From positions 1-58,194 of the forward strand of contig JANYAX010000001.1 of assembly GCA_025361085.1 (NCBI GenBank): a stretch of 58,194 nucleotides of DNA, written 5' to 3'. This DNA is from Candidatus Nomurabacteria bacterium (lineage in GTDB: Bacteria; Patescibacteriota; Minisyncoccia; Phycocordibacterales; UBA9973). Position 1 is the first letter of the stretch, and the number at the start of each line of letters is the position of its first letter. The position numbers and the translations under genes are program-made. Under the pieces are notes generated by a model. The model saw only the letters and a program-made list of their open reading frames with translations. It was not told where the DNA came from and made no database searches. Of this stretch, positions 1,315 through 48,141 are shown piece by piece.

Positions 1315-1326
1315 GGATTAATTAAT

Positions 1327-29281: not shown

Positions 29282-30520
29282 ATGCAAGACAAACAAGTAG
29301 AAAAGCTCATAAAGGCCGAAGAAAAAAGACAAAAAAGTGTTATAAACCTTATCGCTTCTGAGAACTATGTTTCAAACGATGTTTTAAAGGCTCTTGGTTC
29401 AAAACTAACCAATAAATACGCTGAAGGTTATCCAGGTCGCCGATATTATGGTGGAAATGAAATTATAGATAAGGTAGAAACTCTTGCGATGGCTCGTGCT
29501 CTAAAACTTTTCAAACTCAAAGGAGATGGCCCATTCGCTTCGAAAGCTCATGACCAAATATCTAAAGATATTTGGCATGTAAATGTTCAGCTTCTCTCGG
29601 GTTCGCCAGCCAATTTTGCTCTATATTCAGCTCTTGTGCCGATTGGCGGAAAAATTATGGGTATGAAGCTTACTGCTGGTGGTCACTTGACTCACGGGCA
29701 CCCTCTCTCAATGACAGGTAAACTTTGGAAACCATTACAATTCGAACTTGATCCTAAAACTGAAATGATAGATTACGATGCTCTCAAAAAATTAGCAATT
29801 GCAGAAAAGCCAGATATTATAGTTTGTGGATTCACAGCTTACCCAAGAGTTGTTGATTTTAAAAAGTTTAGAGAAATCGCCGATGCGGTAGTTTACCCTG
29901 ATGGAAGAAAAGGCGCAATTCTTCATGTCGACATGTCTCACTTTGCGGGGCTTGTTGCTGGTGGGGCATACCCATCTCCATTTCCATTTGCTGATTCTGT
30001 TATGAGCACAACTCACAAATCTCTCCGTGGTCCAAGACAAGCGATCCTTTGGGTAAAGAAAGATGAAAGAGGTTTTGATAAAAAATTAGATAAGATGGTA
30101 ATACCTGGGTTATTCGGTGGGCCACACGAGAACAACATCGCTGGAGTTGCGATTGCTCTAAAAGAAGCGATGAAGCCAGAGTTCAAAAAATGGGCTAAAC
30201 AAGTTGTGAAGAATGCAAAAACTTTAGCCAAAGAATTACAAAAACTCGGTTGGCATATTATTTCTGGTGGTACAGATTCTCATTTGATATTGATGGATAC
30301 ATGGATGGATGGAAAGGGAATATCTGGCAAAGAGGCAAGTATAAAACTAGAGAAAGCCGGAATCATTGTAAATATGAATACAATCCCTGGCGACACTCGC
30401 TCAGTCATGGACCCATCCGGAATTCGCCTCGGCACTTGTGCCGAAACCACTCGAGGTAAAAAAGAAAAAGATATGATAGTTATTGCCAAGAAGATGGATA
30501 AAGCCCTAAGAGGAAAATAA
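29282..30520 (+). CDS. glyA: Serine hydroxymethyltransferase
   Basis: NVQLLSGSPAN and PLP-lysine TTHKSLRGPR motifs. Confidence 0.9.
   Translation: MQDKQVEKLIKAEEKRQKSVINLIASENYVSNDVLKALGSKLTNKYAEGYPGRRYYGGNEIIDKVETLAMARALKLFKLKGDGPFASKAHDQISKDIWHVNVQLLSGSPANFALYSALVPIGGKIMGMKLTAGGHLTHGHPLSMTGKLWKPLQFELDPKTEMIDYDALKKLAIAEKPDIIVCGFTAYPRVVDFKKFREIADAVVYPDGRKGAILHVDMSHFAGLVAGGAYPSPFPFADSVMSTTHKSLRGPRQAILWVKKDERGFDKKLDKMVIPGLFGGPHENNIAGVAIALKEAMKPEFKKWAKQVVKNAKTLAKELQKLGWHIISGGTDSHLILMDTWMDGKGISGKEASIKLEKAGIIVNMNTIPGDTRSVMDPSGIRLGTCAETTRGKKEKDMIVIAKKMDKALRGK
29528..29555 (+). repeat. In-frame G+C-rich patch in glyA related to the metG element at 46115-46152
   Basis: GGCCCATTCGCTTCGAAAGCTCATGACC versus GGCCCTTCGCTGATGCTCAGGACC; encodes GPFASKAHD. 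Confidence 0.6.
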
Positions 30521-30521
30521 A

Positions 30522-31241
30522 ATGACAAAGAATAAAAAAGAAAAATGCAAAGGAAAACTTATTGTGATTGATGGGACAGATGGTAGTGGGAAAGCCACAC
30601 AAGTCGAGCTTTTAGCGAAGACCCTGAGGAACGAAGGGTTGAAGGTAAAAGTTGTAGATTTCCCAGAGTATTATAAGAATTTCTTTGGGCAATTTATTGG
30701 GCACTGCCTTTCTGAGCAATATTATAATTGGCTCAATATTCATCCAAAGATTGCTTCAGTTATGTATGCTGCTGATAGGTGGGAGTCGAGTGAAGAGATG
30801 AGAAAATGGTTGGATGAGGGTTATATTGTTATTGCAAATCGTTATGTGTCAGCTAATCAAATCCATCAAGGGGGTAAGATTATGAGTGCCAAGAAGAGGA
30901 ACGATTTTTTGAAATGGCTAAACCAAATGGAATATGAGGTTTTTAAAATTCCAAGACCCGATCTGACTTTGTATTTGAGTTTACCTATCGATTTAGTCCT
31001 CAAACTTTTGAAAGATCGAGATAGTAAAATGAAAAGAGAATATTTAAAAAAGAAAAAGGATGTTCACGAAGCGGACGTGAATCATTTAATAAATTCTCGC
31101 AAAAGTGCACTCAAGCTTGTTAAAGAGATCCAGAATTTTATAAAAATTGAATGCTCAGAAAAAGGTGCAATGCTGTCACGTGAAGATATTCACAAAAAGG
31201 TGTATAAAGAAGTTAAAAAAATTATTAAGAAAATAATTTAA
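30522..31241 (+). CDS. tmk: Thymidylate kinase
   Basis: P-loop VIDGTDGSGKATQ. Confidence 0.85.
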   Translation: MTKNKKEKCKGKLIVIDGTDGSGKATQVELLAKTLRNEGLKVKVVDFPEYYKNFFGQFIGHCLSEQYYNWLNIHPKIASVMYAADRWESSEEMRKWLDEGYIVIANRYVSANQIHQGGKIMSAKKRNDFLKWLNQMEYEVFKIPRPDLTLYLSLPIDLVLKLLKDRDSKMKREYLKKKKDVHEADVNHLINSRKSALKLVKEIQNFIKIECSEKGAMLSREDIHKKVYKEVKKIIKKII

Positions 31242-31250
31242 TATTTTATT

Positions 31251-31676
31251 ATGAAAGTAGAGATCAAAAGGATAGATAAATCATTGTCATTACCCGAATA
31301 CCATACGTCTGGAGCTGTAGCTTTTGACTTATATTCAAGGTTTGATGGTATCGTTGCTCCCAAAGCATTAGAAAGATTTCCAACAAATATAATTGTTAAA
31401 ATTCCTGATGGTTATATGCTTGAGATTAAGGATCGTTCCAGTACACTAAAACGAAAAGGGCTTTTGGTAAGTACTGGCTATATAGATAATGATTTTCATG
31501 GAGAGAATGATGAAATTTTGCTCCAGGTATATAATTTGACTGATAATGATGTTAAAATAGAAAAAGGGGAACGTTTAGGCCAAGGTGTTTTTATTAAGGT
31601 AGAAAAGGCAGAATGGGAAGAAGTAGAAAAAATGAAAGAAGTATTTCGTAGTGGTTTTGGTTCAACAGGATATTAA
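31251..31676 (+). CDS. dut: dUTP diphosphatase
   Basis: GYIDNDFHGE and C-terminal RSGFGSTGY motifs. Confidence 0.85.
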   Translation: MKVEIKRIDKSLSLPEYHTSGAVAFDLYSRFDGIVAPKALERFPTNIIVKIPDGYMLEIKDRSSTLKRKGLLVSTGYIDNDFHGENDEILLQVYNLTDNDVKIEKGERLGQGVFIKVEKAEWEEVEKMKEVFRSGFGSTGY

Positions 31677-31677
31677 T

Positions 31678-33522
31678 ATGAAAGAACAAATAGAAAATTT
31701 AATAAAAGAAACTTTAAAAAATCTTGGGATTCCTGCCTGCGCAGGCAGGGAAGATTGTGATTTTTCTGTTGAACATCCTGATGATTTTAATAATGGTGAT
31801 TATTCGACGAATGTGGCGATGGTGAGTGCCAAAAGTTTAAAAACAAATCCAAAAGAATTAGCGGAAAAGATTGTTATAACCCTTCGGCAAGCTCAGGGTG
31901 AATTTCCTGGAATACAGGAAATTCAGATTGCGGGGCCTGGGTTTATAAATTTTTATTTATCTCGAAATTTTTTTACAGAAAGTATAAATAAAATTTTGAA
32001 GGAAGGAGAAAATTGGGGGAAAAATAATTCATCTCTTGGTAAAAAAATAATGGTTGAGTATACCGACCCGAACCCTTTTAAGCCATTTCACATCGGGCAC
32101 TTAATGACGAATGCAATAGGAGAATCGATTTCTCGTATTGTTGAATTCTCTGGAGCTAAAACTGTCAGGGCAAATTATCAGGGCGATATTGGGCCACATG
32201 TAGCTAAAGCGATATATGGTCTTATGAAATTTGGCATGCCTGATGAATTAAAATTAACCGCGGAAAAAGCAGAATATATTGGTGAATGTTATTCGAAAGG
32301 AAGTAATTTATATGATACTGATGAGAATGTTAAAAAAGAAATTGATGAGATAAATAAGAAGATTTATGATAAATCAGATGTTGAGATAAACAAAATTTAT
32401 GATTGGGGGCGAAAAGTAACTCTCGATGCTTTTGAAGAAATATACAAAATTCTTGGAACGAAATTCAATCATTATTTTTTTGAAAGCGAGATGGCGCCTA
32501 TTGGAGAGGAGATTGTTCGCGCAAATGTTATGGCCGAAGGTCCCGAGAGTAACCGAGGGATATTTGAAGATTCAAATGGCGCAATAATTTTCCATGGTGA
32601 GAATTATGACAAGAAACTTCACACACGAGTGTTTATCAATTCACAAGGCCTTCCAACATATGAGACAAAAGAAATTGGTCTCACAATGACTAAATTTGAA
32701 AAAGAAAATCCCGATCTTTCTATTGTTATCACTGCCACAGAGCAAGCCGAATATATGAAAGTAGTTCAGAAAGCTATTTCGTTACTTCACCCAGATTTAG
32801 AGAGTAGAATGAAGCATATTACTCACGGTATGATGCGCTTCGCTTCTGGTAAAATGTCGTCTAGAAAAGGGAATGTAGTCACAGGTGAATCACTTTTGCG
32901 TGATTCGATGGATGTAGTTTATGAAAAAGTTAAAGATCGTGATTTAGAAAATGGAGAAAAAAAGAAAATTGCCGAAGTAGTTGGAGTATCTGCTCTCAAA
33001 TATTCAATTCTAAGGTCGTCTATTGGTAGTGATATTATTTACGATTTTGAAAAATCTATTTCTTTTGATGGTGATTCTGGTCCATATTTACAATACACTG
33101 CAGTCCGAGCAAATTCGATACTCGATAAAGCAAAAGATTTTAAAACCCCCTCGGCTGTTGGCCACTCCTTACAGGAGCAGTACACTTCTCACGTTTTGAA
33201 TACAAAACATTCAAAGTCTTGCGCTTCGGATCCCATCCCGAAGCTCACCCCCTTATCAGGGGGAGAAGTAAATTCTCTTGAAAAATTAATTTATCAATTC
33301 GAAGAAATTGTTGAGTACTCATATGAGAGGCTAGAACCGCATCATATAGCGGTTTATCTTACCGAACTCGCAAGTAGTTTCAATACTTTTTATGGTAATA
33401 CAAAAATTCTTGATGATGGAAACAAAAATATAGCTTATCACTTAGATCTAGTAAAAGCATTTTACCAAACAATGAAAAACGGCCTCTGGCTCTTGGGTAT
33501 TGAAGTTCCAGAGAAAATGTAA
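31678..33522 (+). CDS. argS: Arginine--tRNA ligase
   Basis: PNPFKPFHIGHLMTNAIGE (HIGH) and C-terminal YLTELASSFNTFY; ATG 31678 is adjacent to the dut stop. Confidence 0.9.
   Translation: MKEQIENLIKETLKNLGIPACAGREDCDFSVEHPDDFNNGDYSTNVAMVSAKSLKTNPKELAEKIVITLRQAQGEFPGIQEIQIAGPGFINFYLSRNFFTESINKILKEGENWGKNNSSLGKKIMVEYTDPNPFKPFHIGHLMTNAIGESISRIVEFSGAKTVRANYQGDIGPHVAKAIYGLMKFGMPDELKLTAEKAEYIGECYSKGSNLYDTDENVKKEIDEINKKIYDKSDVEINKIYDWGRKVTLDAFEEIYKILGTKFNHYFFESEMAPIGEEIVRANVMAEGPESNRGIFEDSNGAIIFHGENYDKKLHTRVFINSQGLPTYETKEIGLTMTKFEKENPDLSIVITATEQAEYMKVVQKAISLLHPDLESRMKHITHGMMRFASGKMSSRKGNVVTGESLLRDSMDVVYEKVKDRDLENGEKKKIAEVVGVSALKYSILRSSIGSDIIYDFEKSISFDGDSGPYLQYTAVRANSILDKAKDFKTPSAVGHSLQEQYTSHVLNTKHSKSCASDPIPKLTPLSGGEVNSLEKLIYQFEEIVEYSYERLEPHHIAVYLTELASSFNTFYGNTKILDDGNKNIAYHLDLVKAFYQTMKNGLWLLGIEVPEKM
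31732..31749. repeat. Perfect 18-nt palindrome CCTGCCTGCGCAGGCAGG inside argS
   Basis: Self-complementary; read as PACAGR; near-identical copies at 34891-34908 and 47553-47570. Confidence 0.9.
33145..33267 (+). repeat. Composite G+C-rich insertion of about 120 nt in the argS C-terminal region
   Basis: Four successive hairpins (CTCCT-TAC-AGGAG, GTTTTG-AATA-CAAAAC, CTTCGG-N8-CCGAAG, CCCCC-TTATCA-GGGGG); its ends match the metG element at 46537-46576. Confidence 0.8.
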
Positions 33523-33558
33523 AATAATCAAAAGGCAGTTTATAAAAATATAAGATAC

Positions 33559-33596
33559 AATCAACAGCTTTCTGCTATCGCCGACAAGTGTTGATT
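33559..33596 (+). ncRNA. Short variant of the long-stem hairpin element (after argS)
   Basis: AATCAACA-GCTTTCTGCTATCGCCGACAAG-TGTTGATT; shares GCUUUC and CCGACA core blocks with 28207-28278 and 47904-47979. Confidence 0.4.
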
Positions 33597-33617
33597 ACAA
33601 TAAAAAGGTCTACACGC

Positions 33618-33645
33618 TTGCGATTTTAGGATATTTAAGTATAAT
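33618..33645 (+). promoter_or_regulatory. Sigma-70-type promoter for the ileS leader
   Basis: TTGCGA-N16-TATAAT. Confidence 0.55.
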
Positions 33646-33651
33646 TTGTTT

Positions 33652-33830
33652 ATACGCGTTGAAGAGGTTATCACCTCTGAGTGTGGGGAAGAAAGCCTTA
33701 AATGGTAAGTAGAACCCTATAAATGAGAAGCCCCGCGCAAATCTGGCGGGTAAAAAGTAAGGTGGTACCACGAGAGAAACTCGTCCTTATATAGCAATTA
33801 TTTTAATTGTTATATGTGGACGAGTTTTTT
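33652..33830 (+). promoter_or_regulatory. T-box leader (transcription attenuation) controlling ileS
   Basis: T-box sequence AAGGUGGUACCACG (33759-33772) overlaps the 5' side of the terminator AAACTCGTCC...GGACGAGTTTTTT (33777-33830); Stem I is short. Confidence 0.75.
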
Positions 33831-33937
33831 ATTTAAAAATTAATAATAAAAACTTCGCAAATTATATTCTGAAAAAACTGTACGAGGGAAAGGTCAGACA
33901 TTTTTTCATAAAATAATTTGCTTCGTTTCTTAAATAT

Positions 33938-36900
33938 ATGGAAGAAAACAAAAAATCACAATCTGCGCTTCGAGAAGAATCAGTTTTACAGTTCTGGAAA
34001 GAAAATGATACTTTCAAGAAAAGTCTCGAGAAAGAATCACCAAAGGGTGAGTATGTTTTCTATGAAGGTCCACCAACTGCCAACGGCAAACCAGGCATTC
34101 ACCATCTAGAGGCACGAGCATTCAAAGATGCAATTCCAAGATATAAAACAATGCGAGGGTATCATGTTCGCCGAAAAGGGGGTTGGGATACGCACGGTCT
34201 TCCTGTGGAATTGCAAGTTGAGAAAAAATTGGGTCTTGCTTCGAAGAAAGCAATTGAAGAATATGGAATTGCAAAATTCAATCAAGAATGCAAAGAAAGC
34301 GTTTGGGAATACACCGATCTCTGGGAGAAATTTACTGACCGCATCGGTTACTGGGTAGACCAGAAGAATGCATATGTAACTTATCACAACGATTATATTG
34401 AATCTGTTTGGAATGTTATCAAAGAAGCCGACAAACAGAAATTACTTTATAAAGATTATAAAGTTGTTCCATGGTGCCCACGTTGTGGGACCGGGCTTTC
34501 TTCGCACGAGCTAGCGCAGGGGTATGTGGATGTGAAAGATTTGTCGGTGTATGCAAAATTTCGACTTGTGCAACAAGTCGTCCCGAGCGAAGTCGAGGGA
34601 AAAAGTCTTTCAATAGGTTATGATACATATATTCTTGCTTGGACAACAACCCCTTGGACACTCCCTGGTAATGTGGCTTTGGCTGTTGGTGAAGATATTG
34701 ATTATGTAAAAATAGAAATTTCATCAGACCTCACCCTTGCTAAGGGGGAGGAGAAGATGGGGGTATTTTTAATTCTTGCAAAATCTCGTCTTTCTGTAAT
34801 AGAAGGCGAGTATAAGACTGTTGAAGAATTTAAAGGTAAAGATTTAATCGGTTTAGAATACGAACCTCTTTACCCTTATCTCTCAAATATCCTGGCTGCG
34901 CAGGCAGGAATTTCTGATCTTGAAAAACAAAAACTCGATAAAGCGTTCAAGGTTTACGGCGCAGATTTTGTGACGACCGAAGATGGTACTGGTGTTGTGC
35001 ACACTGCGGTGATGTATGGAGTAGATGACTTTGTGTTGGGAAATAAAATTGGTTTGCCAAAACATCACATGGTTGGGCTTGATGGAAAGTTCCTAGAAGG
35101 GACCGATTTCTTAGAAGGGAGATTTGTTCGTGACGAAGATGTGGCGGTAGATATAATAAAAGATTTAGCACATCGTGGCCTTCTGTTTAAAAAAGAAAAA
35201 TACGAACACTCATACCCACATTGTTGGCGCTGTAAAACAGCTCTCATTTATTATGCTCGCGATTCTTGGTATATCAGGATGTCGTCTCTTCGCGATAAAA
35301 TGGTAGAAGAAAATGAAAGTATAAATTGGGAACCATCATATATCAAAGACGGGCGTTTTGGTGAATGGCTCAAAGACATAAAAGATTGGGCAATTTCTCG
35401 TGAACGTTACTGGGGTACACCTCTTCCTGTTTGGAGTTGTAATGAATGTAAAAAATATGAAGTTATTGGAAGTTTGGAAGATATAAAATCAAAAACCAAA
35501 AAATCTGGAAATAAATATTTCATAATGCGTCATGGAGTATCGGAAGCTAATATTTGTGATAAGGTGAGTTGCAATGTTAATGATGTTGACCATCTTACCG
35601 AAGAAGGGAAAAAACAAGTTCTAAATTCCATAGAAGATTTAAAAAATAAAAAAATTAATTTAATAATTTCGTCTGATTTTATAAGAACGAAAGAAACAGC
35701 AGAAATTATTAAAGATACGTTAAACATTAAAGAAGAAGATTATATTTTTGAGAAAAGAATAAGAGAATTAAATGTTGGAGTTTTTGATGGGAAAACATGG
35801 AGTGAATATTATGGTTCTCGCGAAGAAAAAGATTGGTACTCTTATAAACCGCAAAGTGGTGAATCATGCAAGGAAGTCAAATTTAGAATGACTAGCTTTT
35901 TGTATGAATTAGAACAAAAATATAAAGATAAAAATATTCTAATCGTTACCCACGAAGGACCAGCTAGAATGTTATTAGCGGGAATACTTGGATTAGATGA
36001 CAAAGAGACAGAAGAACAACTAGAAAATAAAATTCCGCACTTAGAAAATGCTAGTGTAACAGAACTTGATTTTATCCCTCTACCTCACAACGAAAATTAC
36101 GAACTTGATTTTCATAAACCATATATCGATGAGGTTGAATTAAATTGTCAGTGTGGTGGAAAGTTAGAAAGAACAAAAGAAGTGATGGATGTCTGGCTTG
36201 ATTCAGGGACGATGCCGTTTTCGCAAGATCATTATCCTTTCGATTTCCTTCCACAAAAGTCAGGACAAGTCGCGGAGGGCAGGCCATTCGAAAACAAACA
36301 ATTACCTTATCCCGCAGATTTTATCTGTGAAGCGATGGACCAGACTCGTGGATGGTTCTATACCTTGCACGCCGTTGGAATGATAATGGGTAAGGGCAAA
36401 GCCTACAAAAACGTGATTTGTCTGGGTCTTCTTCTTGATGCCCAAGGAAAGAAAATGTCTAAGTCGCTTGGTAATATCGTCGACCCTTGGGAGATGATGC
36501 ACAAATATGGAGCCGATACTATTCGTCTGTGGATGTATTCGGTCAATCAGCCCGGTGACCCAAAGAGTTTCGATGAGAAAGTTGTTTCTGAATTACACAA
36601 TAAAGTTTTCAATTTGCTTTATAACGTTCTCGCTTTCTATGAACTCTATCGTGACCCTTCATTAGAAACTAAAACATATAAATTAGAATCTGATTCGAAT
36701 ATATTAGATCAGTGGATAATTGCACGTCTCTCTGAACTTACAGAAAATATGACCAAGCAACTTGACGGCTACAAACTTCTCGAACCTATCCGCGCGATTC
36801 GAGATTTCATTGATGATCTTTCGACTTGGTATTTGAGACGATCAAGAGATCGTATAAAAAATAATGATCAAGAAGCAAAAATCACAATGTACTATGTTTT

Positions 36901-37579
36901 GAAAACACTAGTCAAACTCATGGCTCCATTTGCGCCTTTCGCAGCCGAAGATATTTGGCAGAGATTAAAAAATAATCGTGTTTCAACAGACGAGACACGA
37001 CATGATTTCGCTAAATCAGAGGTAGAAAGTGTGCATTTAGCAGATTGGCCTGAGTTACCTCTATTGGGTCTCCTTCATACAAAGGGCGAAGGGAAATATA
37101 AGGTTTTGGAAGAAATGCAACAAGTTAGAAAAATTGTTACTCTTGGGTTGCAAGCAAGACAAAAAGCTGGAATTCCAGTAAGACAACCGCTTTCGGATTT
37201 GAGTCTAAAAAATTATGAATTAGATAAAGAATATACAAAAATAATTAAAGAAGAATTAAATATTAAGATTGTCATGACAAATAGTGCAATGACAGATGAG
37301 GTAGTTATAAACACCAACATAGATCCGAAATTAAAACGTGAAGGGCAGTATCGAGAACTCGTGAGAGCAATACAAGATATTCGTAAAAAGAACGGGCTTA
37401 ATCCAAGTGACATAGTTACTATTGTTGCTGATACAAATTCAAAAGGGCAAGAATTGGTAAATGAATTCAAAACCGAGCTCATGAAAGCAGTTAGTGCCAA
37501 AGATATACAGATGAAAGAAAACAGTGGAGAAGAAATGAAAATCGGAGAATTTTCATTTAAAATTTTAATCGAAAAATAA
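33938..37579 (+). CDS. ileS: Isoleucine--tRNA ligase with a nested histidine-phosphatase domain
   Basis: PPTANGKPGIHH (HIGH), WTTTPWTLPGN (editing domain), KMSKSLGN; 1213 aa. Confidence 0.95.
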   Translation: MEENKKSQSALREESVLQFWKENDTFKKSLEKESPKGEYVFYEGPPTANGKPGIHHLEARAFKDAIPRYKTMRGYHVRRKGGWDTHGLPVELQVEKKLGLASKKAIEEYGIAKFNQECKESVWEYTDLWEKFTDRIGYWVDQKNAYVTYHNDYIESVWNVIKEADKQKLLYKDYKVVPWCPRCGTGLSSHELAQGYVDVKDLSVYAKFRLVQQVVPSEVEGKSLSIGYDTYILAWTTTPWTLPGNVALAVGEDIDYVKIEISSDLTLAKGEEKMGVFLILAKSRLSVIEGEYKTVEEFKGKDLIGLEYEPLYPYLSNILAAQAGISDLEKQKLDKAFKVYGADFVTTEDGTGVVHTAVMYGVDDFVLGNKIGLPKHHMVGLDGKFLEGTDFLEGRFVRDEDVAVDIIKDLAHRGLLFKKEKYEHSYPHCWRCKTALIYYARDSWYIRMSSLRDKMVEENESINWEPSYIKDGRFGEWLKDIKDWAISRERYWGTPLPVWSCNECKKYEVIGSLEDIKSKTKKSGNKYFIMRHGVSEANICDKVSCNVNDVDHLTEEGKKQVLNSIEDLKNKKINLIISSDFIRTKETAEIIKDTLNIKEEDYIFEKRIRELNVGVFDGKTWSEYYGSREEKDWYSYKPQSGESCKEVKFRMTSFLYELEQKYKDKNILIVTHEGPARMLLAGILGLDDKETEEQLENKIPHLENASVTELDFIPLPHNENYELDFHKPYIDEVELNCQCGGKLERTKEVMDVWLDSGTMPFSQDHYPFDFLPQKSGQVAEGRPFENKQLPYPADFICEAMDQTRGWFYTLHAVGMIMGKGKAYKNVICLGLLLDAQGKKMSKSLGNIVDPWEMMHKYGADTIRLWMYSVNQPGDPKSFDEKVVSELHNKVFNLLYNVLAFYELYRDPSLETKTYKLESDSNILDQWIIARLSELTENMTKQLDGYKLLEPIRAIRDFIDDLSTWYLRRSRDRIKNNDQEAKITMYYVLKTLVKLMAPFAPFAAEDIWQRLKNNRVSTDETRHDFAKSEVESVHLADWPELPLLGLLHTKGEGKYKVLEEMQQVRKIVTLGLQARQKAGIPVRQPLSDLSLKNYELDKEYTKIIKEELNIKIVMTNSAMTDEVVINTNIDPKLKREGQYRELVRAIQDIRKKNGLNPSDIVTIVADTNSKGQELVNEFKTELMKAVSAKDIQMKENSGEEMKIGEFSFKILIEK
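34730..34750 (+). repeat. In-frame C/G-run hairpin in ileS
   Basis: CTCACCCTT-GCT-AAGGGGGAG, same type as 46557-46576 and 33244-33265; encodes LTLAKGE. Confidence 0.6.
34891..34908. repeat. 18-nt palindrome copy (CCTGGCTGCGCAGGCAGG) inside ileS
   Basis: 17 of 18 nt identical to 31732-31749; read in a different frame (LAAQAG). Confidence 0.85.
35500..36073 (+). other. Histidine phosphatase (PGAM-like) domain nested in IleRS
   Basis: FIMRHGVSEAN (RHG at 35528-35536), SSDFIRTKETA, RELNVGVFDGKTW and IVTHEGPARML, in the canonical order and spacing. Confidence 0.8.
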
Positions 37580-37580
37580 A

Positions 37581-38117: not shown

Positions 38118-38121
38118 GAGT

Positions 38122-38517
38122 ATGAAAACAATTTTAATTGATGCAGCGGATTGCTTTATTATTGAACAAGAGGGTGGTTTTGTGGTTTTTAAAGACATGT
38201 ATAATTTATTAGAAACATATCCTAACAGAAAAATTATATTAACTGGTGCTAATGATGAGCAAGCTATTAAATTTGGGTTAGATAAAGTGCCTTATGAAGT
38301 TTTTACCCTTAAGCATAATCCAGAAAAAACGGATCCAAGATACTATGAAATACTTTTAGAAAAGTTTGGATTGAAAAAAGATGAAGTTGTCTATTCTGAA
38401 CATAATATAAATGCAGTCAAGAGTGCACAATCTGTTGGAATTAATACTTACTATTATGATAATGACAAAAAAGACATAGATTCATTAAAAAATTTTTTAG
38501 ATGAGAATTTAAATTAG
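38122..38517 (+). CDS. HAD-like fold protein with degenerate catalytic motifs
   Basis: ILIDAADC replaces DxDxT and SEHN replaces the DD motif; otherwise the HAD-IA layout. Confidence 0.5.
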   Translation: MKTILIDAADCFIIEQEGGFVVFKDMYNLLETYPNRKIILTGANDEQAIKFGLDKVPYEVFTLKHNPEKTDPRYYEILLEKFGLKKDEVVYSEHNINAVKSAQSVGINTYYYDNDKKDIDSLKNFLDENLN

Positions 38518-41101: not shown

Positions 41102-41124
41102 TTAATAATCATTATTTTTTTAAA

Positions 41125-42423: not shown

Positions 42424-42426
42424 AAA

Positions 42427-42449
42427 AACCCCCGACAAAATCGGGGGTT
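42427..42449. terminator. Bidirectional intrinsic terminator
   Basis: AACCCCCGA-CAAAA-TCGGGGGTT flanked by A and T runs. Confidence 0.85.
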
Positions 42450-42454
42450 GCTTG

Positions 42455-42931
42455 TTAAGGGGTCATGTTTCGTGTAGATCTTTCGATCTTTTTTCTCAGA
42501 CCTTTAAGTTCAGGGACAGGAGGGTTCTCTGAATCCTTCCATTCACCTTCCGGCAAAATTGGTTTTTTGAATCCCTCTGCTACTCGAAGCTCATGCTCGA
42601 TCCTTGTTCTGATATTCTGTAGATTGTTGACATCATCGAAGTTCAACAGTGCGCAAACAATGTTCAAGGCGCAGGTTCTAGCATCCTTGATGCGTTTGAT
42701 CTCTGTCTCCGAAAGATCTTTGGGAATACCTTCTAAAGATTTTTCAAATTGGAGATAGGGTTTATCCATACTGTTTTCGTTTATGAACCGAATGATTTCA
42801 TCTTTATGCTCTGGATAATAATCCAAGAGTTCTAATCTCTTCTTTAATGACAAATCTTTTAAAAATTCATCACTTACTCTGTTTTTTTTGTGTGTCATCT
42901 GTCTTTTTTTTTGAGCGTTTATTTCATTCAT
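42455..42931 (-). CDS. Hypothetical protein
   Basis: 158-aa ORF with no recognisable motif; the only minus-strand gene in this stretch. Confidence 0.45.
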   Translation of the reverse strand: MNEINAQKKRQMTHKKNRVSDEFLKDLSLKKRLELLDYYPEHKDEIIRFINENSMDKPYLQFEKSLEGIPKDLSETEIKRIKDARTCALNIVCALLNFDDVNNLQNIRTRIEHELRVAEGFKKPILPEGEWKDSENPPVPELKGLRKKIERSTRNMTP

Positions 42932-43009
42932 AAATTATCATTAATGAAGATATAAGTCAAATAAAACTATAGTATTTTTAATAAACCAAAAATATGGTAA
43001 TATCACCTT

Positions 43010-44281
43010 ATGCAAAAAGCTATAAAAAAGACATATAAAAATGGTTTAAGGGTTATAACTGTGCCAATGAAAGATAATCCCACTGTTACGGTTCTTGTTC
43101 TTGTCGGCACGGGGAGTGACTATGAACCTAAAGAAATTAATGGTATTTCTCATTTTTTAGAGCACATGTGTTTTAAGGGCACAGTTAAGAGGCCAACATC
43201 TCAAGTTATTTCTCACGAGCTCGATTCTCTTGGTTGCCAGTACAATGCTTTCACTGGCCATGAAATGACTGGGTATTATGCAAAAGGTGACGCCAAAAAT
43301 TTCAAGCAAATTTTCGATATTGTGTCAGATATTTATTTGAATTCTACTTTTCCCGAAAAAGAAATGGAGAAAGAAAAAGGAGTGATAATCGAAGAAATAA
43401 ATATGTACGAAGATATGCCTCAACAACACGTGCAAGACTTATTCAGCCAAGTACTTTATGGTGACCAACCAGCGGGGTGGAATATCGCTGGTCCGAAAGA
43501 GAATATTAAAAAAATGGTGCGTGACAATTTCGTAAAGTATAAAGGGAGTCACTATGTAGCATCGAACACTCTCATAGTGGTATCAGGGAATATAACAAAT
43601 GATGATGTCTACAAAGAAGTAAACAAATATTTTAAAGATATAAAATCAACTGGGAAAATTAAAAAAGTAAAAACAAAAGTATCACAAACAAATCCAAATA
43701 TTTTGGTAAAATATAAAGAGACAGATCAGACGCATTTTGTATTGGGCGTTCATACTTTCTCATTGTTTGATAAAAGAAATATGGCAATCTCACTTCTAGG
43801 TGGTGTACTAGGAGCAGGGATGAGTTCGCGCTTGTTCAATAAACTTCGTGAAGAAATGGGTGTGGCATATTATGTCAGGGCTTACAATGACACCTCACTT
43901 GATCATGGAGAATTTCAGATATCTGCAGGGGTGAACAATGCTCGGACTGAAGAAGTAATCAAAGAAATTTTAAAAGAATGCAACCTATTAATGATTGAGA
44001 AAGTAAGTGAGAAAGAATTAAATAAGGTAAAGTCATTTTTAATTGGTAATATGAAAATGTCTCTTGAAGCTACCGATGATATTACCAATTTCTATGGGGG
44101 TCAGGAACTTATGAAAGGTGAGATAAAAACTCTAGAAGAAAAGATAAAAGAAATAAATAAAGTTACAGCCCTCGATATTCAAAAGATGGCAAAAGTAATA
44201 TTCAAAAGTAAAAATCTTAATCTAGCCCTTATCGGGCCATTCAAAGATAATGCTAAATTCAAAGATATATTAACGTTCTAA
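43010..44281 (+). CDS. M16-family (pitrilysin-like) zinc peptidase
   Basis: Inverted zinc motif HFLEHMCFKGT. Confidence 0.85.
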   Translation: MQKAIKKTYKNGLRVITVPMKDNPTVTVLVLVGTGSDYEPKEINGISHFLEHMCFKGTVKRPTSQVISHELDSLGCQYNAFTGHEMTGYYAKGDAKNFKQIFDIVSDIYLNSTFPEKEMEKEKGVIIEEINMYEDMPQQHVQDLFSQVLYGDQPAGWNIAGPKENIKKMVRDNFVKYKGSHYVASNTLIVVSGNITNDDVYKEVNKYFKDIKSTGKIKKVKTKVSQTNPNILVKYKETDQTHFVLGVHTFSLFDKRNMAISLLGGVLGAGMSSRLFNKLREEMGVAYYVRAYNDTSLDHGEFQISAGVNNARTEEVIKEILKECNLLMIEKVSEKELNKVKSFLIGNMKMSLEATDDITNFYGGQELMKGEIKTLEEKIKEINKVTALDIQKMAKVIFKSKNLNLALIGPFKDNAKFKDILTF

Positions 44282-44321
44282 ATTATTGGCAAAATTTACG
44301 ACGCGGTGTTATTATAGAAAG

Positions 44322-45389
44322 ATGGAGGAAAAACCAAGGAACATGCATATAAGCATCTCAACAAATACTCTCATAAAGATAATTCTTCTGGGGGTTTTGG
44401 TCTTTGCAGTAATTAAATTAATAAATGTGGTTCTTATTATCCTCGTTGCGATAGTGCTCGCTTCATTTGTAGAATCAGGTGTAAAAAAGCTTAAGAAATA
44501 TATAAAGAATAGGTCTGTTGCCGTTTTCCTTATTTATATAGTTGCTCTCATAATAATCGTTACTTTATCATCTATCTTTATGCCAGTGTTCATAGAGGAG
44601 GTGTCTGCACTTGTGACTTCTCTTTCCCAATATATTCCACATGGTAGTATTTTAAATACCTTCCAGCCCGATACGATTTCTGGGGCAAAAGATGTTGTTA
44701 CTAGCTTATCTCACAACGCCTCTCTCGGTGATGTCATCAAAAGTGTTCAATCTTTGATATCAAGTCTTTCTGGTGGTTTCTTGGACATTTTTAATGGAGC
44801 ATTTGGTGGTGTTCTTAACTTTATATTGATTGTAATTATTTCATTTTATCTATCGGTTACTGAAAAGGGGATCGAAAATTTCTTGCGTGTTATTACTCCA
44901 AGAAAAAGTGAAGAATACATAATAGGTCTATGGCAAAGAACAGAACATAAAATCGGTCTGTGGATTCAAGGACAGATGCTTTTGGGTCTTATAATCGGAG
45001 TGTTGGCATACCTTGGGCTTACGATAATCGGAGTTAAATATTCACTGGTCTTGGCAATCATAACTGCTTTCTGTGAACTTGTTCCTTTTGGGATATATCT
45101 TGCCATTATTCCCGTTGTGATATTTAGCTTTCTTGATGGTGGTGTTACAATGGCGGCACTTTCATTTGGTTTGTATTTTATTCTTCATCAATTCGAAAAT
45201 TATTTGATTTATCCTTTGATAATCAAAAAAGTTATAGGCATATCTCCACTTGTTGTCGTACTTTCTATTATTATAGGGATAGAGTTGGCTGGATTTTTTG
45301 GTGTGATTCTTGCGATACCGACAGCTGTCTGTTTATTAGAATTTTTAGATGATCTTGAGAAGAAGAAAGTTCTTGCTCGAGAAACATAA
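44322..45389 (+). CDS. AI-2E (PerM/UPF0118) family transporter
   Basis: Multi-TM protein with the family-typical C-terminal half; start uncertain (TTG 44286 or ATG 44322). Confidence 0.75.
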   Translation: MEEKPRNMHISISTNTLIKIILLGVLVFAVIKLINVVLIILVAIVLASFVESGVKKLKKYIKNRSVAVFLIYIVALIIIVTLSSIFMPVFIEEVSALVTSLSQYIPHGSILNTFQPDTISGAKDVVTSLSHNASLGDVIKSVQSLISSLSGGFLDIFNGAFGGVLNFILIVIISFYLSVTEKGIENFLRVITPRKSEEYIIGLWQRTEHKIGLWIQGQMLLGLIIGVLAYLGLTIIGVKYSLVLAIITAFCELVPFGIYLAIIPVVIFSFLDGGVTMAALSFGLYFILHQFENYLIYPLIIKKVIGISPLVVVLSIIIGIELAGFFGVILAIPTAVCLLEFLDDLEKKKVLARET

Positions 45390-45390
45390 T

Positions 45391-46875
45391 ATGCAAAAAA
45401 CATTTTTCTTAACCACAACGCTACCTTACGTAAATGCGCCACTTCACATGGGGCATGCTCTTGAATTTGTGCGAGCCGATACGATAGCTCGCTACAAGAA
45501 ACTTTCTGGTTTTGATGTCTATTTTAATACGGGGACAGATGAACACGGTTTAAAAATATTTGAAAAAGCTAAAGAAAAAGGTTTAACTGCTCAAGAATTT
45601 GTCGACCAAGGGTTTGAAGTTTTTAAAGAACAATTGAAAATGTTTGGGGTAAGTGATGATATTCACTTTATTCGTACAACCGACAAGAGCCATGAAAAAG
45701 CCGCGCAAGAATTCTGGGTTAGGGTGAATGACAATGGTTATATCTATAAAAAGAATTATGAAGCTAAATATTGTGTAGGATGTGAAAGTGGAAAGACTGA
45801 TAGTGAGCTTGTAGATGAGAGATGCTCGCTCCACCCAGATGTTGAATTGAAAATAATTAAAGAAGAAAATTATTTTTTTAAATATTCAGAATTTGGAGAA
45901 AAGCTCCTAGCTTTTTACGAAAAGAACCCTAATTTTGTTGTCCCAGATTTTCGTTTTCATGAGATAAAAAACTTTGTTAAAAATGGTTTGCAAGATTTTT
46001 CTATTTCACGTTTGAAAGAAAAAATGCCGTGGGGGATAGAGGTACCAGGAGATAATACTCAAGTAATGTATGTTTGGTTTGACGCGCTTGTAAATTATAT
46101 CTCGACACTTGGTTGGCCCTTCGCTGATGCTCAGGACCTTCGGCCCTTCGAACAAAATAATTTTGAAAAATACTGGGTGAATGGGAATCCAACGCAATAT
46201 TGTGGAAAAGATAATACTCGTTTTCAGGCGGCTATGTGGCAAGCAATGCTTATGGCTGCGGGTGTTCCAAATTCACATCAAATAATCGTAAATGGGTTTA
46301 TCACAGGAGAAGGGGGAATTCGTATGTCTAAATCACTTGGTAATGGTGTAGACCCACGCGATATTGTGGGTGAATATGGCACAGATGCGCTCCGATATTT
46401 CTTGCTTCGCGAAGTCGGAAGTTTTGAAGATAGCCCATTTACGGTTGAACGATTCAAAGATGCTTACAATTCAGGATTAGCAAACGGGTTGGGAAATTTG
46501 ACGTCGAGGATTTTGACTTTATCGGAAAAATATTTGACCCCCTCTGCCTCCGGCATCTCCCCCTTAGCAGGGGGAGAAAAATACGTTTTTCATACAGAGT
46601 TTACTAATCACTTAGAAAATTTTGATATTCAAAAAGCAACAGAATTTATTTGGCAGAAAATAGGAGATCTAGATAAGAGAATTCAAGAAACAGAACCGTT
46701 CAAGGTTGTGAAAGTAGATATTGAGAAAGGGAAAGAATTGATAAAAGAAAATATCGAGAGACTTTATGAAATATCCGAATTATTAATTCCCATGCTTCCA
46801 GAAACTTCACAAAAAATTCAAGAACTCATAAAACAAAACAAAAAACCAGAAGCCCCATTGTTTTTTAGAAAATAA
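45391..46875 (+). CDS. metG: Methionine--tRNA ligase
   Basis: PYVNAPLHMGHA (HIGH) and RMSKSLGN (KMSKS); ATG 45391 follows the previous stop. Confidence 0.9.
   Translation: MQKTFFLTTTLPYVNAPLHMGHALEFVRADTIARYKKLSGFDVYFNTGTDEHGLKIFEKAKEKGLTAQEFVDQGFEVFKEQLKMFGVSDDIHFIRTTDKSHEKAAQEFWVRVNDNGYIYKKNYEAKYCVGCESGKTDSELVDERCSLHPDVELKIIKEENYFFKYSEFGEKLLAFYEKNPNFVVPDFRFHEIKNFVKNGLQDFSISRLKEKMPWGIEVPGDNTQVMYVWFDALVNYISTLGWPFADAQDLRPFEQNNFEKYWVNGNPTQYCGKDNTRFQAAMWQAMLMAAGVPNSHQIIVNGFITGEGGIRMSKSLGNGVDPRDIVGEYGTDALRYFLLREVGSFEDSPFTVERFKDAYNSGLANGLGNLTSRILTLSEKYLTPSASGISPLAGGEKYVFHTEFTNHLENFDIQKATEFIWQKIGDLDKRIQETEPFKVVKVDIEKGKELIKENIERLYEISELLIPMLPETSQKIQELIKQNKKPEAPLFFRK
46115..46152 (+). repeat. In-frame 38-nt G+C-rich element in metG
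   Basis: GGCCCTTCGCTGATGCTCAGGACCTTCGGCCCTTCGAA; the 16-nt core GCTCAGGACCTTCGGC is identical to the inverted intergenic copy at 48104-48141; the 5' half matches glyA 29528-29555. Confidence 0.85.
46537..46576 (+). repeat. In-frame C/G-run hairpin element in metG
   Basis: ACCCCCTCTGCCTCCGGCAT-CTCCCCC-TTAGCA-GGGGGAG; encodes TPSASGISPLAGGE; the ends match the argS insertion (TPSAVG...TPLSGGE). Confidence 0.85.
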
Positions 46876-46879
46876 AATA

Positions 46880-46912
46880 CCCTCACCTGGCCTCCCCCTA
46901 CATAGGGGGAAG
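46880..46912. repeat. Intergenic C/G-run hairpin element between metG and the TatD gene
   Basis: TCCCCCTA-CA-TAGGGGGA (46893-46910), perfect 8-bp arms. Confidence 0.8.
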
Positions 46913-46956
46913 TGCTCCAACTTTGTTGGAGTGGTGGTGGATATTTAAATAATACC

Positions 46957-47895
46957 ATGCCCAAATACATTGATATACATTGCCATACGAATTTTAAGAT
47001 TTTCGAGAATGATCGAGATGAGGTTATTCGACGTGCGCTCGATAATGACACCTGGCTTATAAATATTGGTACACAATATGATACTTCGAAAAAAGCAGTC
47101 GAAATGACAAGAGAATATCCTGACGGAGTTTTTGCAACTATTGGCCTCCACCCGATTCATACAGACAAGTCATATCATGATGAGAGTGAGATTGGCGAGG
47201 GTGGTCAAGAATTTTCTTCTCGTGGAGAAATTTTTGATAAAGAAAAATATAAAGAATTAGCTAAACAAGGGAAAGTTGTAGGAATAGGTGAGTGTGGACT
47301 CGATTATTATCACATTGGTTCGACAAGCTCACCACAAAGGGAACTAGAATTTATTGAAAAACAAAAAACGGCATTTATTGCACAGATTGAACTTGCAAAT
47401 GAACTTGATTTACCACTTATGCTTCACGTGCGCAATGGTTCACTTCGTCGGGCTCAGTGTAAACTCAGCTCACCACAGGCAACCGAAAAGAACGCGTATT
47501 TTGATGTTTATGAATTATTAAAAAAGTATTCAAAAAGGATTAATGAAAAAGGCCTGCCTGCGCAGACAGGAGTCTCGCATTTTTTTGCTGGTAGTGTAGA
47601 AGATATGAAAAGATTTATCGAGATAGGAGTATATATTTCTTTTGCTGGTCCAATAACTTATAAACCAAAGCCAGAAATTTGTGACTATATAGGAGTGATA
47701 AAAGAAACCTCGCTAGATATGATTCTTGCCGATACAGACAGTCCATATGTGGCCCCGGTGCCCCATAGGGGGGAAAGGAATGAACCAGTGAATGTATCTG
47801 ATATAGTGGCCAAAATAGCCGAAATTAAGGGGATTAGCGAGGCTGAAGCATCTAAATCGATACTTTCAAACGCCCAAAAACTCTTTAATATATAA
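46957..47895 (+). CDS. TatD-family metal-dependent hydrolase
   Basis: IDIHCH, GECGLDYY, SHFFAG and DTDSPYVAPVPHRGERNEP motifs; about 55 aa longer than typical because of three G+C-rich patches. Confidence 0.85.
   Translation: MPKYIDIHCHTNFKIFENDRDEVIRRALDNDTWLINIGTQYDTSKKAVEMTREYPDGVFATIGLHPIHTDKSYHDESEIGEGGQEFSSRGEIFDKEKYKELAKQGKVVGIGECGLDYYHIGSTSSPQRELEFIEKQKTAFIAQIELANELDLPLMLHVRNGSLRRAQCKLSSPQATEKNAYFDVYELLKKYSKRINEKGLPAQTGVSHFFAGSVEDMKRFIEIGVYISFAGPITYKPKPEICDYIGVIKETSLDMILADTDSPYVAPVPHRGERNEPVNVSDIVAKIAEIKGISEAEASKSILSNAQKLFNI
47317..47340 (+). repeat. In-frame G+C-rich patch 1 in the TatD gene
   Basis: GGTTCGACAAGCTCACCACAAAGG (GSTSSPQR); shares TTCG-CAAGCTCA with argS 31880-31902 and AGCTCACCACA with 47437-47482. 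Confidence 0.6.
47437..47482 (+). repeat. In-frame G+C-rich patch 2 in the TatD gene
   Basis: GGTTCACTTCGTCGGGCTCAGTGTAAACTCAGCTCACCACAGGCAA (GSLRRAQCKLSSPQA). Confidence 0.6.
47553..47570. repeat. 18-nt palindrome copy (CCTGCCTGCGCAGACAGG) in the TatD gene
   Basis: 17 of 18 nt identical to 31732-31749; read as LPAQTG. Confidence 0.85.
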
Positions 47896-47903
47896 ATTAC
47901 TTC

Positions 47904-47979
47904 ACAAGATTACTAAAATTATTCGCGCTTTCCCCAGAGTACTGGGCTCCGACACGACTCATAATTCTAGTAATCTTGT
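47904..47979 (+). ncRNA. Long-stem hairpin element, copy 2 (between the TatD gene and rpsF)
   Basis: 19-bp stem (18 paired) around the core CGCGCUUUCCCCAG-AGUA-CUGGGCUCCGACACGA; same orientation relative to the flanking genes as copy 1. Confidence 0.6.
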
Positions 47980-48103
47980 TTCGTTTTATGACTGGACATT
48001 TGGGCTTTGTTCTGTTAATATAAGCCTTATCTCGTTTGTCCCGACCCTGAAGTCGGTACACATAGGTCCGTAGCGAGATTCCGTATGCATTGAGAAGTTA
48101 GTC

Positions 48104-48141
48104 TTCGAATGCGCCGAAGGTCCTGAGCCGAAAGGCGAAGG
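48104..48141 (-). repeat. Intergenic inverted copy of the metG 46115-46152 element
   Basis: The reverse complement reads CCTTCGCCTTTCGGCTCAGGACCTTCGGCGCATTCGAA. Confidence 0.85.

Follow-up and report, generated by a model that had tools for sequence, protein, structure and literature searches.

Background

The Rickettsia palindromic elements (RPEs), families RPE-1 to RPE-8, were reportedly described by Ogata and colleagues in 2000 and 2002. Yeast mitochondrial genomes carry GC clusters, and double-hairpin or palindromic elements occur in fungal, algal and sponge organelle genomes. The DNA uptake sequences (DUS) of Neisseria and the uptake signal sequences (USS) of Pasteurellaceae consist of one dominant motif, present about once per kb. 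RPEs are also treated in PMC1166351, PMC1458961 and PMC3733652; the last of these (Di Nocera et al. 2013) reports repetitive extragenic palindromic sequences (REPs) of 20-40 bp inside known genes of several phyla, and classes RPE-4 and RPE-6 as CGTC REPs. On the organelle elements see also PMC2670323 and PMC6649704. Here we describe short G+C-rich elements inserted in frame into housekeeping genes of a Candidatus Nomurabacteria bacterium, a member of the candidate phyla radiation (CPR, Patescibacteria). The window, that is, the whole stretch of DNA analysed, is 58,194 nt of contig JANYAX010000001.1.

A first-pass annotation of the window had proposed an RPE-like colonization of its housekeeping genes and had named the Rickettsia elements as the only well-described precedent. 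The latter statement has to be corrected, intragenic REPs having been described in several phyla by Di Nocera et al. (PMC3733652). The RPE-like reading itself fits every test that we ran: frames and orientations, codon-exact indels, recurrence in related genomes, location in loops and strain polymorphism. We favor, with a probability of about 0.6, the view that these are REP/RPE-type families of very short (18-45 nt), G+C-rich, mostly hairpin-forming elements that carry no gene and insert at the DNA level into genes and intergenic DNA alike. The kind of element is already known from intragenic REPs and RPEs. What appears to be new is its occurrence in CPR: our full-text literature searches returned no paper linking CPR or Patescibacteria with REPs, MITEs (miniature inverted-repeat transposable elements), RPE-type repeats or in-frame palindromic insertions.

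Like RPEs, these elements form repeat families in the small AT-rich genome of a host-dependent bacterium, lie in frame in housekeeping genes and also between genes, are apparently translated as extra surface segments, vary in presence between relatives and decay gradually, and neither system has a known associated transposase. They differ in size (18-45 nt versus about 100-150 nt for RPE-1, and thus nearer RPE-4 and RPE-6), in host (CPR rather than an alphaproteobacterium), and in taxonomic reach, since at least one family is found as an identical 18-mer in many phyla and not in a single genus only. Because of their length we do not count them as RPE-1-type elements.

Three families of short G+C-rich elements

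The window has a GC content of 35.7% and consists almost entirely of housekeeping genes, whose identities were confirmed by Pfam. The closest relatives of its arginyl-tRNA synthetase (ArgRS) found by BLASTP are 67-75% identical and come from sources whose names include Candidatus Paceibacterota and Nomurabacteria, in keeping with a place for the window in CPR/Patescibacteria. The genes bearing insertions are as follows; other named genes of the window are tmk, dut, recO, glyQS, rpsF and ssb.

1327-2280: prfB, release factor 2 (RF2)
29282-30520: glyA, serine hydroxymethyltransferase (SHMT)
31651/31678-33522: argS
33938-37579: ileS
45349-46875: metG
46912-47895: tatD
52018-52752, minus strand: pseudouridine synthase gene

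About 20 short G+C-rich patches are present, 17 of 20 (approximately 85%) within genes and three between them. In-frame copies occur in prfB, argS, ileS, metG, tatD and the pseudouridine synthase gene, and apparently decayed copies in glyA. Eleven of the 14 clear family copies are intragenic, all in five genes that make up about 15% of the sequence, and the remaining three adjoin those same five genes. The elements are concentrated in translation-related genes.

An 11-mer census and blastn-short searches with the family sequences reduce the patches to three nucleotide families and a few unclassified inserts. Family A is an 18-nt perfect palindrome, CCTGCCTGCGCAGGCAGG, found exactly at 31732 and with one mismatch each at 34891 and 47553; an A-like variant, CCTGCCTCG...CAAGGCGGG, lies in the pseudouridine synthase gene (52231-52259). 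Family B/F is CCTTCGRCNNGCTCAGGACCTTCGGC. In AT-rich contigs it takes an extended form, CCTTCGRCNN-GCTCAGGAC-CTTCGGC, derived from 13 metagenome copies, which unites the earlier seed GCTCAGGACCTTCGGC with a second motif. This seed lies at 46129 on the plus strand, at 48113 on the minus strand and, with two mismatches, at 32533 on the minus strand, and the family is read in two frames and two orientations. Family C/D has a C-rich leader, ACCTCACCCCCTG, followed by the hairpin CCCCTCTCCTTA-N-TAAGGAGAGGGG. Its two earlier seeds, AAGGAGAGGGGCAGGGGGTGAGGT (1291, with a copy one indel apart at 1693) and CTCCCCCTTAGCAGGGGGAG (46557, with relatives at 33246, 34738 and 46893), represent one family in opposite orientations.

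The four seeds of the first-pass annotation all occur where it had placed them, and approximately zero matches are expected in dinucleotide-preserving shuffles. The copies are related at the nucleotide level, not at the protein level. As that annotation had pointed out, the same 18-mer is read as PACAGR in argS, LAAQAG in ileS and LPAQTG in tatD, that is, in two frames, and one element exists in both orientations, on the plus strand in metG (46115-46152) and on the minus strand in a spacer (48103-48141), with 31 of 40 aligned columns identical. Three non-coding copies (at 1278, 46880 and 48103) were likewise recovered, and the pseudouridine synthase patch, previously given as probable, is present. 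Families A and C/D fold into hairpins of mostly -6.5 to -13.5 kcal/mol (z down to -4.3), mismatched A copies being weaker. No head-to-head dimers were seen in the window. The individual copies are listed below (palindromic copies are unstranded).

1278..1316, minus strand: non-coding C/D copy between a pyridoxal phosphate (PLP)-dependent enzyme gene (minus strand) and prfB; reverse orientation, hairpin CCCTCT..AGAGGG then CAGGGGGTGAGGTGG, -6.9 kcal/mol, z = -3.2; identity to the prfB copy in 34 of 42 aligned columns
1661..1718, minus strand: C/D copy in prfB, read as KPPLLTKERGQGVRS; hairpin CCCCCTCTCCTTA/TAAGGAGAGGGGG with 12-bp stem, -13.3 kcal/mol, z = -3.4
29528..29572, plus strand: glyA insertion, apparently a decayed B/F copy, read as (G)PFASKAHDQISKDI; GC 0.36; insert in at most 2 of 65 orthologues; resemblance to B/F limited to the 5' 28 nt, with 24 of 40 aligned columns shared with the metG copy
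29891..29911, plus strand: glyA insertion VYPDGRK, AT-rich at present; its counterpart at this position in one relative (L061) is still GC-rich (0.57)
31732..31749, unstranded: family A in argS, PACAGR, perfect palindrome, -6.5 kcal/mol
31880..31902, plus strand: B/F in argS, CCCTTCGGCAAGCTCAGGGTGAA, read as TLRQAQGE; also in some relatives
32532..32559, minus strand: B/F in argS, reverse orientation, read as (A)EGPESNRG; an older insert, common to L023, L061 and L069 at the same site
33139..33267, plus strand: composite insertion near the C-terminal part of argS (aa 488-529), comprising a hairpin at 33223-33244 and a C/D copy at 33244-33267 (CTCACCCCCTTATCAGGGGGAG, LTPLSGG); -13.5 kcal/mol, z = -4.3
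34568..34594, plus strand: ileS insertion VQQVVPSEV, GC 0.59; weak link to B/F in insert clustering
34724..34753, plus strand: C/D in ileS, GACCTCACCCTTGCTAAGGGGGAGGAG, read as SDLTLAKGEE; -8.4 kcal/mol, z = -4.0
34891..34908, unstranded: family A with one mismatch in ileS, LAAQAG
36236..36283, plus strand: ileS insertion PFDFLPQKSGQVAEGR, GC 0.54; related PFDF(A/T)QGK inserts at this site in L044, L046 and L047
46115..46152, plus strand: B/F in metG, (W)PFADAQDLRPF(E); L207 and L508 have the element at this site too, the loop being an insertion hot spot in relatives
46537..46578, plus strand: C/D in metG, read as TPSASGISPLAGGE; 9-bp stem, -12.4 kcal/mol, z = -3.35; also in ArgRS of other genomes (L021, L033, P0075)
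46880..46912, plus strand: non-coding C/D copy between the metG stop codon and tatD
47319..47343, plus strand: B/F in tatD, TTCGACAAGCTCA..., read as STSSPQRE in a frame unlike that of the argS and metG copies
47437..47469, plus strand: tatD insertion GSLRRAQCKLS, GC 0.55, no family
47553..47570, unstranded: family A with one mismatch in tatD, LPAQTG
48103..48141, minus strand: non-coding B/F copy, reverse orientation, in the tatD-rpsF spacer; no Rfam family here
52231..52259, minus strand: hairpin CCTGCCTCGCCGAGTCAAGGCGGG, A-like, within the pseudouridine synthase gene (PASPSQGG); also inserted in ArgRS of relatives (P0045, P0049, L019)

Could these patches be ordinary lineage-specific loops, G+C-rich through their Gly, Ala, Pro and Arg codons and similar to one another by coincidence? 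Some G+C-rich patches are indeed conserved motifs and not inserts (the GGQ region of prfB, 1910-1941; the zinc motif of ileS, 34473-34496), approximately half of the lineage-specific inserts in these genes are not GC-rich, and the raw number of GC-rich patches (24 in the window versus 13.3 +/- 3.8 in shuffled sequences) shows a modest, about two-fold excess. This number is a weak statistic, and we use repeated seeds and hairpins as evidence instead. Against coincidence, identical strings of 16-42 nt appear in different frames, in both orientations and in non-coding DNA, with none expected in shuffles, and other genomes carry the same elements in other genes. Relative to shuffles, perfect palindromes are in about 7-8 fold excess. 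The window has 19 perfect GC-rich hairpins (stem 7 or longer, loop no longer than 40), versus 2.7 +/- 1.4 in shuffles, several of the 19 being ordinary intergenic terminator-like hairpins. Ordinary loops are thus a highly improbable explanation of the patches. Nor do non-coding RNAs offer an explanation for the non-coding copies, since an Rfam scan of the window, the tatD-rpsF spacer included, returned one tRNA and no other match.

The prfB gene is a single open reading frame (ORF) of 317 aa preceded by a 116-nt spacer (window 1211-1330), an arrangement because of which it seemingly lacks the programmed +1 frameshift leader and the approximately 20 N-terminal residues of classical RF2. The C/D copy just upstream of its start codon may provide a Shine-Dalgarno-like GAGGTGG.

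Insertion status and protein structure

Among 120 aligned ArgRS sequences, PACAGR is an exact six-codon indel present in the window protein only, and the other argS patches fall in low-occupancy alignment columns. So do the patches of ileS and glyA (58-65 syntenic orthologues with DNA) and those of metG and tatD (69-78 orthologues). In prfB, 24 residues (aa 114-137, about 1666-1737) stand where the solved RF2 structure in the PDB has two. Judging by these alignments, the patches are discrete lineage-specific insertions relative to orthologues, in agreement with the earlier view that orthologues have only short loops at these positions. The companion claim, that the patches are G+C-rich, holds with exceptions: insertions are present in the genes that had been named, but the two in glyA, although true insertions, now have an overall GC of 0.36-0.38, and some other G+C-rich patches are the conserved motifs mentioned above.

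We examined the protein context of the inserts in an AlphaFold model of ArgRS (mean predicted local distance difference test score, pLDDT, 85.4; predicted template modeling score, pTM, 0.87). The inserts at residues 19-24, 287-294 and 488-529 are modeled as coil, and pLDDT falls below 50 at 22-24, 287-290 and 492-528; the sole other such segment is the usual mobile loop at 396-399. The ArgRS inserts are therefore predicted to fall in disordered or loop segments, where the first-pass annotation had expected them.

In an independent assembly made from a public run, and seen in three samples, 3,247 nt spanning argS match the window at 100% identity; the inserts are therefore not assembly chimeras. 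Artefact is further opposed by the presence of the phenomenon in hundreds of metagenome-assembled genomes from unrelated studies.

Reading frame and translation

All intragenic copies in the window are in frame and free of stop codons, as had been claimed, and inserts whose limits are known at the nucleotide level consist of whole codons (18 nt; 33 nt). The family A palindrome contains no stop in any frame, and each of the three is used somewhere among the genomes. Within ORFs of 600 nt or more from AT-rich genomes, however, their use is very unequal, with 31 LPAQAG, 7 PACAGR and 2 CLRRQ (chi-square p = 1.5e-8), versus 20:13:12, or about uniform, in short or non-ORF contexts. We attribute this bias to selection on the encoded peptide; removal before translation does not explain it. 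We infer that the inserts are translated and not spliced out.

These results bear directly on the hypothesis of intervening sequences that are taken out of the RNA or the protein, a hypothesis which, together with assembly artefact, we hold to be very unlikely. The hairpins and sharp unit boundaries of some families would suit such processing. Yet in-frame, stop-free copies and whole-codon inserts are not what it calls for, a bias toward the most benign peptide is unexpected if the segment is excised before translation, decayed copies persist as coding sequence, and the lone tRNA is the only Rfam match of the window. Removal at the RNA level, one of the three options raised in the first-pass annotation, is disfavored because the frame bias is strong and old copies persist as in-frame codons; introns and other intervening sequences are likewise a poor match in view of frame, absence of stops, frame bias and lack of an Rfam match.

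Turnover and decay

ArgRS pairs that are 92-94% identical show three to four insert differences. At the finest scale, the loci L201 and L205, encoding ArgRS proteins P0039 and P0037, show 9 differences in 6,957 nt and, in argS, a single in-frame insert of 33 nt. This insert, which we call element E (CCTACTCCTGAGCAGGCTCAGAACGGGCAACGT), is read as PTPEQAQNGQR. Presence/absence polymorphism, anticipated under the RPE-like reading, is thus found in a close relative.

Inserts at one and the same site are patchily distributed across ArgRS lineages, and the GC content of such a same-site insert falls from 0.61 to 0.39 in older lineages, where it is still coding. In a comparison of four loci only, the nucleotide identity of the 33-nt element is 0.61, versus 0.73 for its flanks; we therefore see no sign of nucleotide-level constraint after insertion. 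By their sequence, the glyA inserts of the window look like decayed copies. A metagenome search (in a collection that does not include the source genome) returned no empty allele of the PACAGR site, the nearest ArgRS found by BLASTP being 75% identical.

Distribution in relatives, other phyla and viral contigs

ArgRS of relatives ranges from 567 aa, apparently insert-free, to 605 aa, and insert peptides recur at many loops. They include TPSASGISPLSGG (the same as the window metG element), L(T/P)L(D/T)KGE..GGG and the A-like SGLSAQAG/GLPTGQAG, as well as PASPSQGG, LPARNATHNVAGG, KQGFGG and LKDGPWGS..DRPL. The GC-rich inserts of relatives are palindromes of 0.55-0.78 GC in genes of 0.27-0.38 GC, and other inserts are AT-rich, which makes the GC distribution bimodal. 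When 435 lineage-specific inserts from 13 genes were clustered by nucleotide sequence, families were found to span non-homologous sites and different genes, window families A, B/F and C/D included; related genomes hold further copies, in line with the RPE-like reading. In 81 loci (1.45 Mb), 171 perfect GC-rich hairpins were found versus 21 in shuffles, 78 of them inside long ORFs. A census of GC-rich 12-mers across loci is dominated by conserved coding motifs of orthologous genes and is uninformative about the elements.

The family A 18-mer occurs in more than 120 stretches at least, in a scan of one genome per species. CPR from many phyla make up the bulk of the matches listed (WWE3, Microgenomates, Woese-, Gottesman-, Beckwith-, Shapiro-, Kaiser-, Nomura-, Uhr-, Yonath-, Zambryski- and Wildermuthbacteria), alongside some Bacteroidota and others, and some genomes have several copies. 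In 174 flanks from AT-rich genomes there is no conservation save a purine at position -1, and the palindrome is seldom extended; because of this we consider the unit to be about 18-20 nt long. The C/D hairpin is present in 2-3 copies per genome in several Paceibacteria. Fixed-spacing patterns for the C/D and A-like hairpins miss known copies, as loop lengths vary, and zeros obtained with them are not meaningful.

In viral contigs, family A has 25 matches, nearly all in GC-rich contigs and with no clear phage vector among them, and the C/D hairpin has zero. The B/F 19-mer CCTTCGACAAGCTCAGGAC is found exactly in 67 viral contigs (IMG/VR, L331-L397), mostly GC-rich, and also in metagenome contigs (L398 onward); GAACGG often follows it in the viral contigs, where inverted pairs occur at times (L343). 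This short repeat, read as 'PFDKLRTNG', seems to have a very wide distribution.

Some individual contexts deserve mention. Five CPR genomes (L107:1700-2110, L117:3500-4020, L190, L118, L122) carry the family A palindrome at one position in a pseudo 5' half of tRNA-Gln. The context is GCCGGRTCR, then the palindrome, then TCTAATGGTAGGA, mostly just downstream of dnaX, with an intact tRNA-Gln adjoining. A GIY-YIG ORF is a neighbor, most clearly in L107 and L118; the ORF of L117 is of unverified type. The palindrome-bearing pseudo tRNA-Gln may be a mobile module or a preferred target. In L187 (5860-5940), a family A palindrome stands between a CACCTCACCCCAG leader and a CCCTCTCCTTATCAAGGAGAGGGGG hairpin, which looks like a family A copy nested in a C/D element. 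Finally, a hairpin with a 10-bp stem, GGGCGCGCCG-AGTA/TACT-CGGCGCGCCC, its loop in either orientation, is found in four related genomes (L057:13725, L066:13914, L069:7400, L071:9020), inside ORFs that differ little in length (1,488-1,635 nt).

Comparison with REPs, organellar elements and uptake sequences

REPs of the GTAG and CGTC superfamilies are GC-rich stem-loops of 20-40 nt with stems of 5-13 bp and loops of 2-20 nt (PMC3733652). Families A and C/D form such stem-loops; B/F and element E do not. Further points in common are the multiple families per genome, the presence of some copies in known genes, where they encode short peptides, and, for CGTC REPs, the lack of a dedicated transposase. 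Family A nevertheless has neither a GTAG/CGTC tag nor a CCA tail. The proportion of intragenic copies in the window (17/20) is far above that of classical REPs, no gene for a REP-associated tyrosine transposase (RAYT) lies in the 58-kb window, and CPR is outside the phyla surveyed in PMC3733652. Because the GTAG/CGTC tag is lacking, we do not assign the elements to the tagged REP superfamilies. MITEs were considered and rejected: a target-site duplication is lacking at the 33-nt strain indel, at the exact PACAGR insertion and in family A flanks.

Organellar GC clusters are also short GC-rich palindromes of a very AT-rich reduced genome, mobile-looking and strain-polymorphic, with occasional in-frame insertion into protein genes such as var1. 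The likeness is a descriptive one, and sets organelles beside free-living or episymbiotic bacteria; moreover, GC clusters are reported to prefer AT-rich targets and to have short duplications, which we do not see here.

DUS and USS resemble the present elements as short motifs in both orientations, found in tolerated frames within genes and as inverted pairs between them, and common to related species; their hosts are naturally competent, as are Saccharibacteria among CPR. Here the place of a dominant motif, found about once per kb, is taken by several families, each with a density of about 0.05 per kb (3 family A copies in the 58 kb of the window), and we are dealing with insertions that decay, not with motifs made by point mutation.

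A role of this sort is part of a broader alternative, in which the elements are functional nucleic-acid signals under selection: DNA-uptake or recognition sequences used by the competence machinery, binding sites of a conserved protein, or RNA hairpins acting on mRNA stability or on translation pausing between folding units. We consider it unlikely. Site occupancy is patchy even among strains or proteins 92-100% identical, old copies lose both sequence and GC content, and insert sites vary between orthologues without fixed positions. Several unrelated families coexist, B/F and E among them not being hairpins, and density per family is low in the window as in relatives. What does speak for selected signals is the conservation of an exact 18-nt palindrome over many CPR phyla, the clustering of elements in translation-related genes, and the intergenic position of 3 of the about 20 window copies, one directly 5' of the prfB start and one past the metG stop. 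Natural competence, known from Saccharibacteria (CPR; PMC10633639), points the same way. The hairpin-forming signals envisaged in the first-pass annotation thus stand as far as structure goes, A and C/D being stable hairpins, and are weakened as signals by patchiness, decay, coexisting families and low density. Among the three sub-hypotheses it had raised, selfish mini-insertions tolerated in loops fit best.

Origin and spread of the elements

Under the REP/RPE-type interpretation that we favor, insertion would be more or less indiscriminate, and selection would purge copies that break a reading frame or a fold. What survived would be loops of 6-15 residues, with abundant Gly, Ala, Pro, Gln and Leu, carried by large enzymes that tolerate loops (aminoacyl-tRNA synthetases, RF2 and TatD, for example), and AT-biased mutation would then erode the copies, which would stay coding. 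The mobilizing activity may act in trans on single-stranded hairpin DNA, either as a HUH/RAYT-like enzyme encoded elsewhere or through a repair or recombination route. Hairpins and the missing target-site duplication would be compatible with a RAYT or IS200-like enzyme specific for single-stranded hairpins. Insert-bearing and empty alleles may also spread between lineages via short-patch homologous recombination; natural competence is known from CPR relatives (Saccharibacteria).

Several observations weigh against this interpretation. Each family is sparse, with about 3-6 copies per Mb in sampled relatives, and family A elements are extremely short and have no conserved tag beyond the purine at -1. 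Hairpin formation is not universal, because B/F and the 33-nt element E fold no better than shuffled sequence. None of the 50 window ORFs scanned contains a transposase, HUH/RAYT, recombinase or homing-endonuclease domain, and the strain-level polymorphism comes from a relative rather than from the window's own copies. The presence of the same 18-mer across CPR phyla, some Bacteroidota and others makes vertical selfish spread alone a poor fit, and requires frequent horizontal transfer, convergence or function. Lastly, at the L201/L205 indel, which shows neither a target-site duplication nor a flanking direct repeat, 2 of the 9 differences are synonymous changes at junction -1 and +2, in the state seen in insert-bearing relatives. 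These junction-adjacent changes suggest short-patch recombination with a diverged allele, or a complex indel or deletion, rather than clean transposition. Recombination with a diverged allele or a complex deletion fits this case at least as well as de novo insertion.

It is also conceivable that no transposase is involved: GC-rich hairpin fragments would survive the degradation of taken-up DNA, be patched in by illegitimate or short-patch recombination, and spread by homologous recombination of their flanks, circulating horizontally with no transposition within genomes. This accords with the L201/L205 indel, flanked on both sides by such synonymous changes amid 9 differences in about 7 kb, with the patchy same-site insert of ArgRS lineages, and with the absence of a target-site duplication at the strain-level indel and of a transposase in the window. 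It also accords with the identity of A and B/F sequences in distant phyla and the 67 viral contigs that carry the B/F 19-mer; most viral and metagenomic A and B/F matches, however, are in GC-rich contigs, where chance or unrelated repeats may contribute. Taken alone, such a putative uptake-linked route also leaves unaccounted for the presence of a family in several copies at unrelated sites of a single genome. We judge it improbable; cross-phylum identity and the recombination signature nonetheless leave room for a transposase-free, uptake-linked route.

A bolder proposition, to which we give limited credence, is that CPR and some co-occurring Bacteroidota and others share a pool of minimal DNA parasites, 18-26 nt long and palindromic or nearly so, of which CCTGCCTGCGCAGGCAGG and CCTTCGACAAGCTCAGGACCTTCGGC would be examples. 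Devoid of tags and transposase, these would move horizontally, plausibly through competence and short-patch recombination, and seed surface loops in essential proteins. If true, this would amount to a transposase-free spread of selfish DNA and a steady supply of protein insertions.

Whatever their mode of spread, the elements show selfish or neutral DNA persisting even in CPR genomes, held to be extremely streamlined, in which the most conserved enzymes (aminoacyl-tRNA synthetases, RF2, SHMT, TatD) are repeatedly colonized, and they explain to a large extent why CPR housekeeping proteins vary in length (ArgRS 567-614 aa). The inserts can mislead marker-gene alignments, phylogenies and structure predictions in CPR and create spurious small ORFs. 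They are also possible strain-level markers and natural examples of insertion-tolerant loop positions. With an identical 18-mer in different phyla, one must ask how DNA this short passes from one genome to another, a question that genetically tractable, naturally competent Saccharibacteria make testable.

Other features of the window

The 1,213-aa isoleucyl-tRNA synthetase (IleRS) encoded by ileS contains a complete histidine-phosphatase domain (His_Phos_1; window 35519-36073, aa 528-712), an architecture also seen in the 1,166-aa IleRS of relatives. A 43-nt inverted repeat, 77% complementary, joins the intergenic spacers at 28200-28242 and 47944-47986. The latter spacer (47880-48200), the one scanned, gave no Rfam match at a permissive threshold; the core of the repeat, GGGCTCCGACACG, has a third occurrence at about 52977. 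Two directly repeated stretches of 72 nt (7028-7099 and 9212-9283) are 96% identical, one at the 3' end of a NADAR-domain ORF, the other between HAD hydrolase and SAICAR synthetase genes. A 109-nt tandem duplication, 99% identical (51528-51783), lies within the unannotated ORF 51278-51958, whose 5' end resembles that of ORF 49506-51191 (76% over 83 nt, 49528-49610 and 51291-51373).

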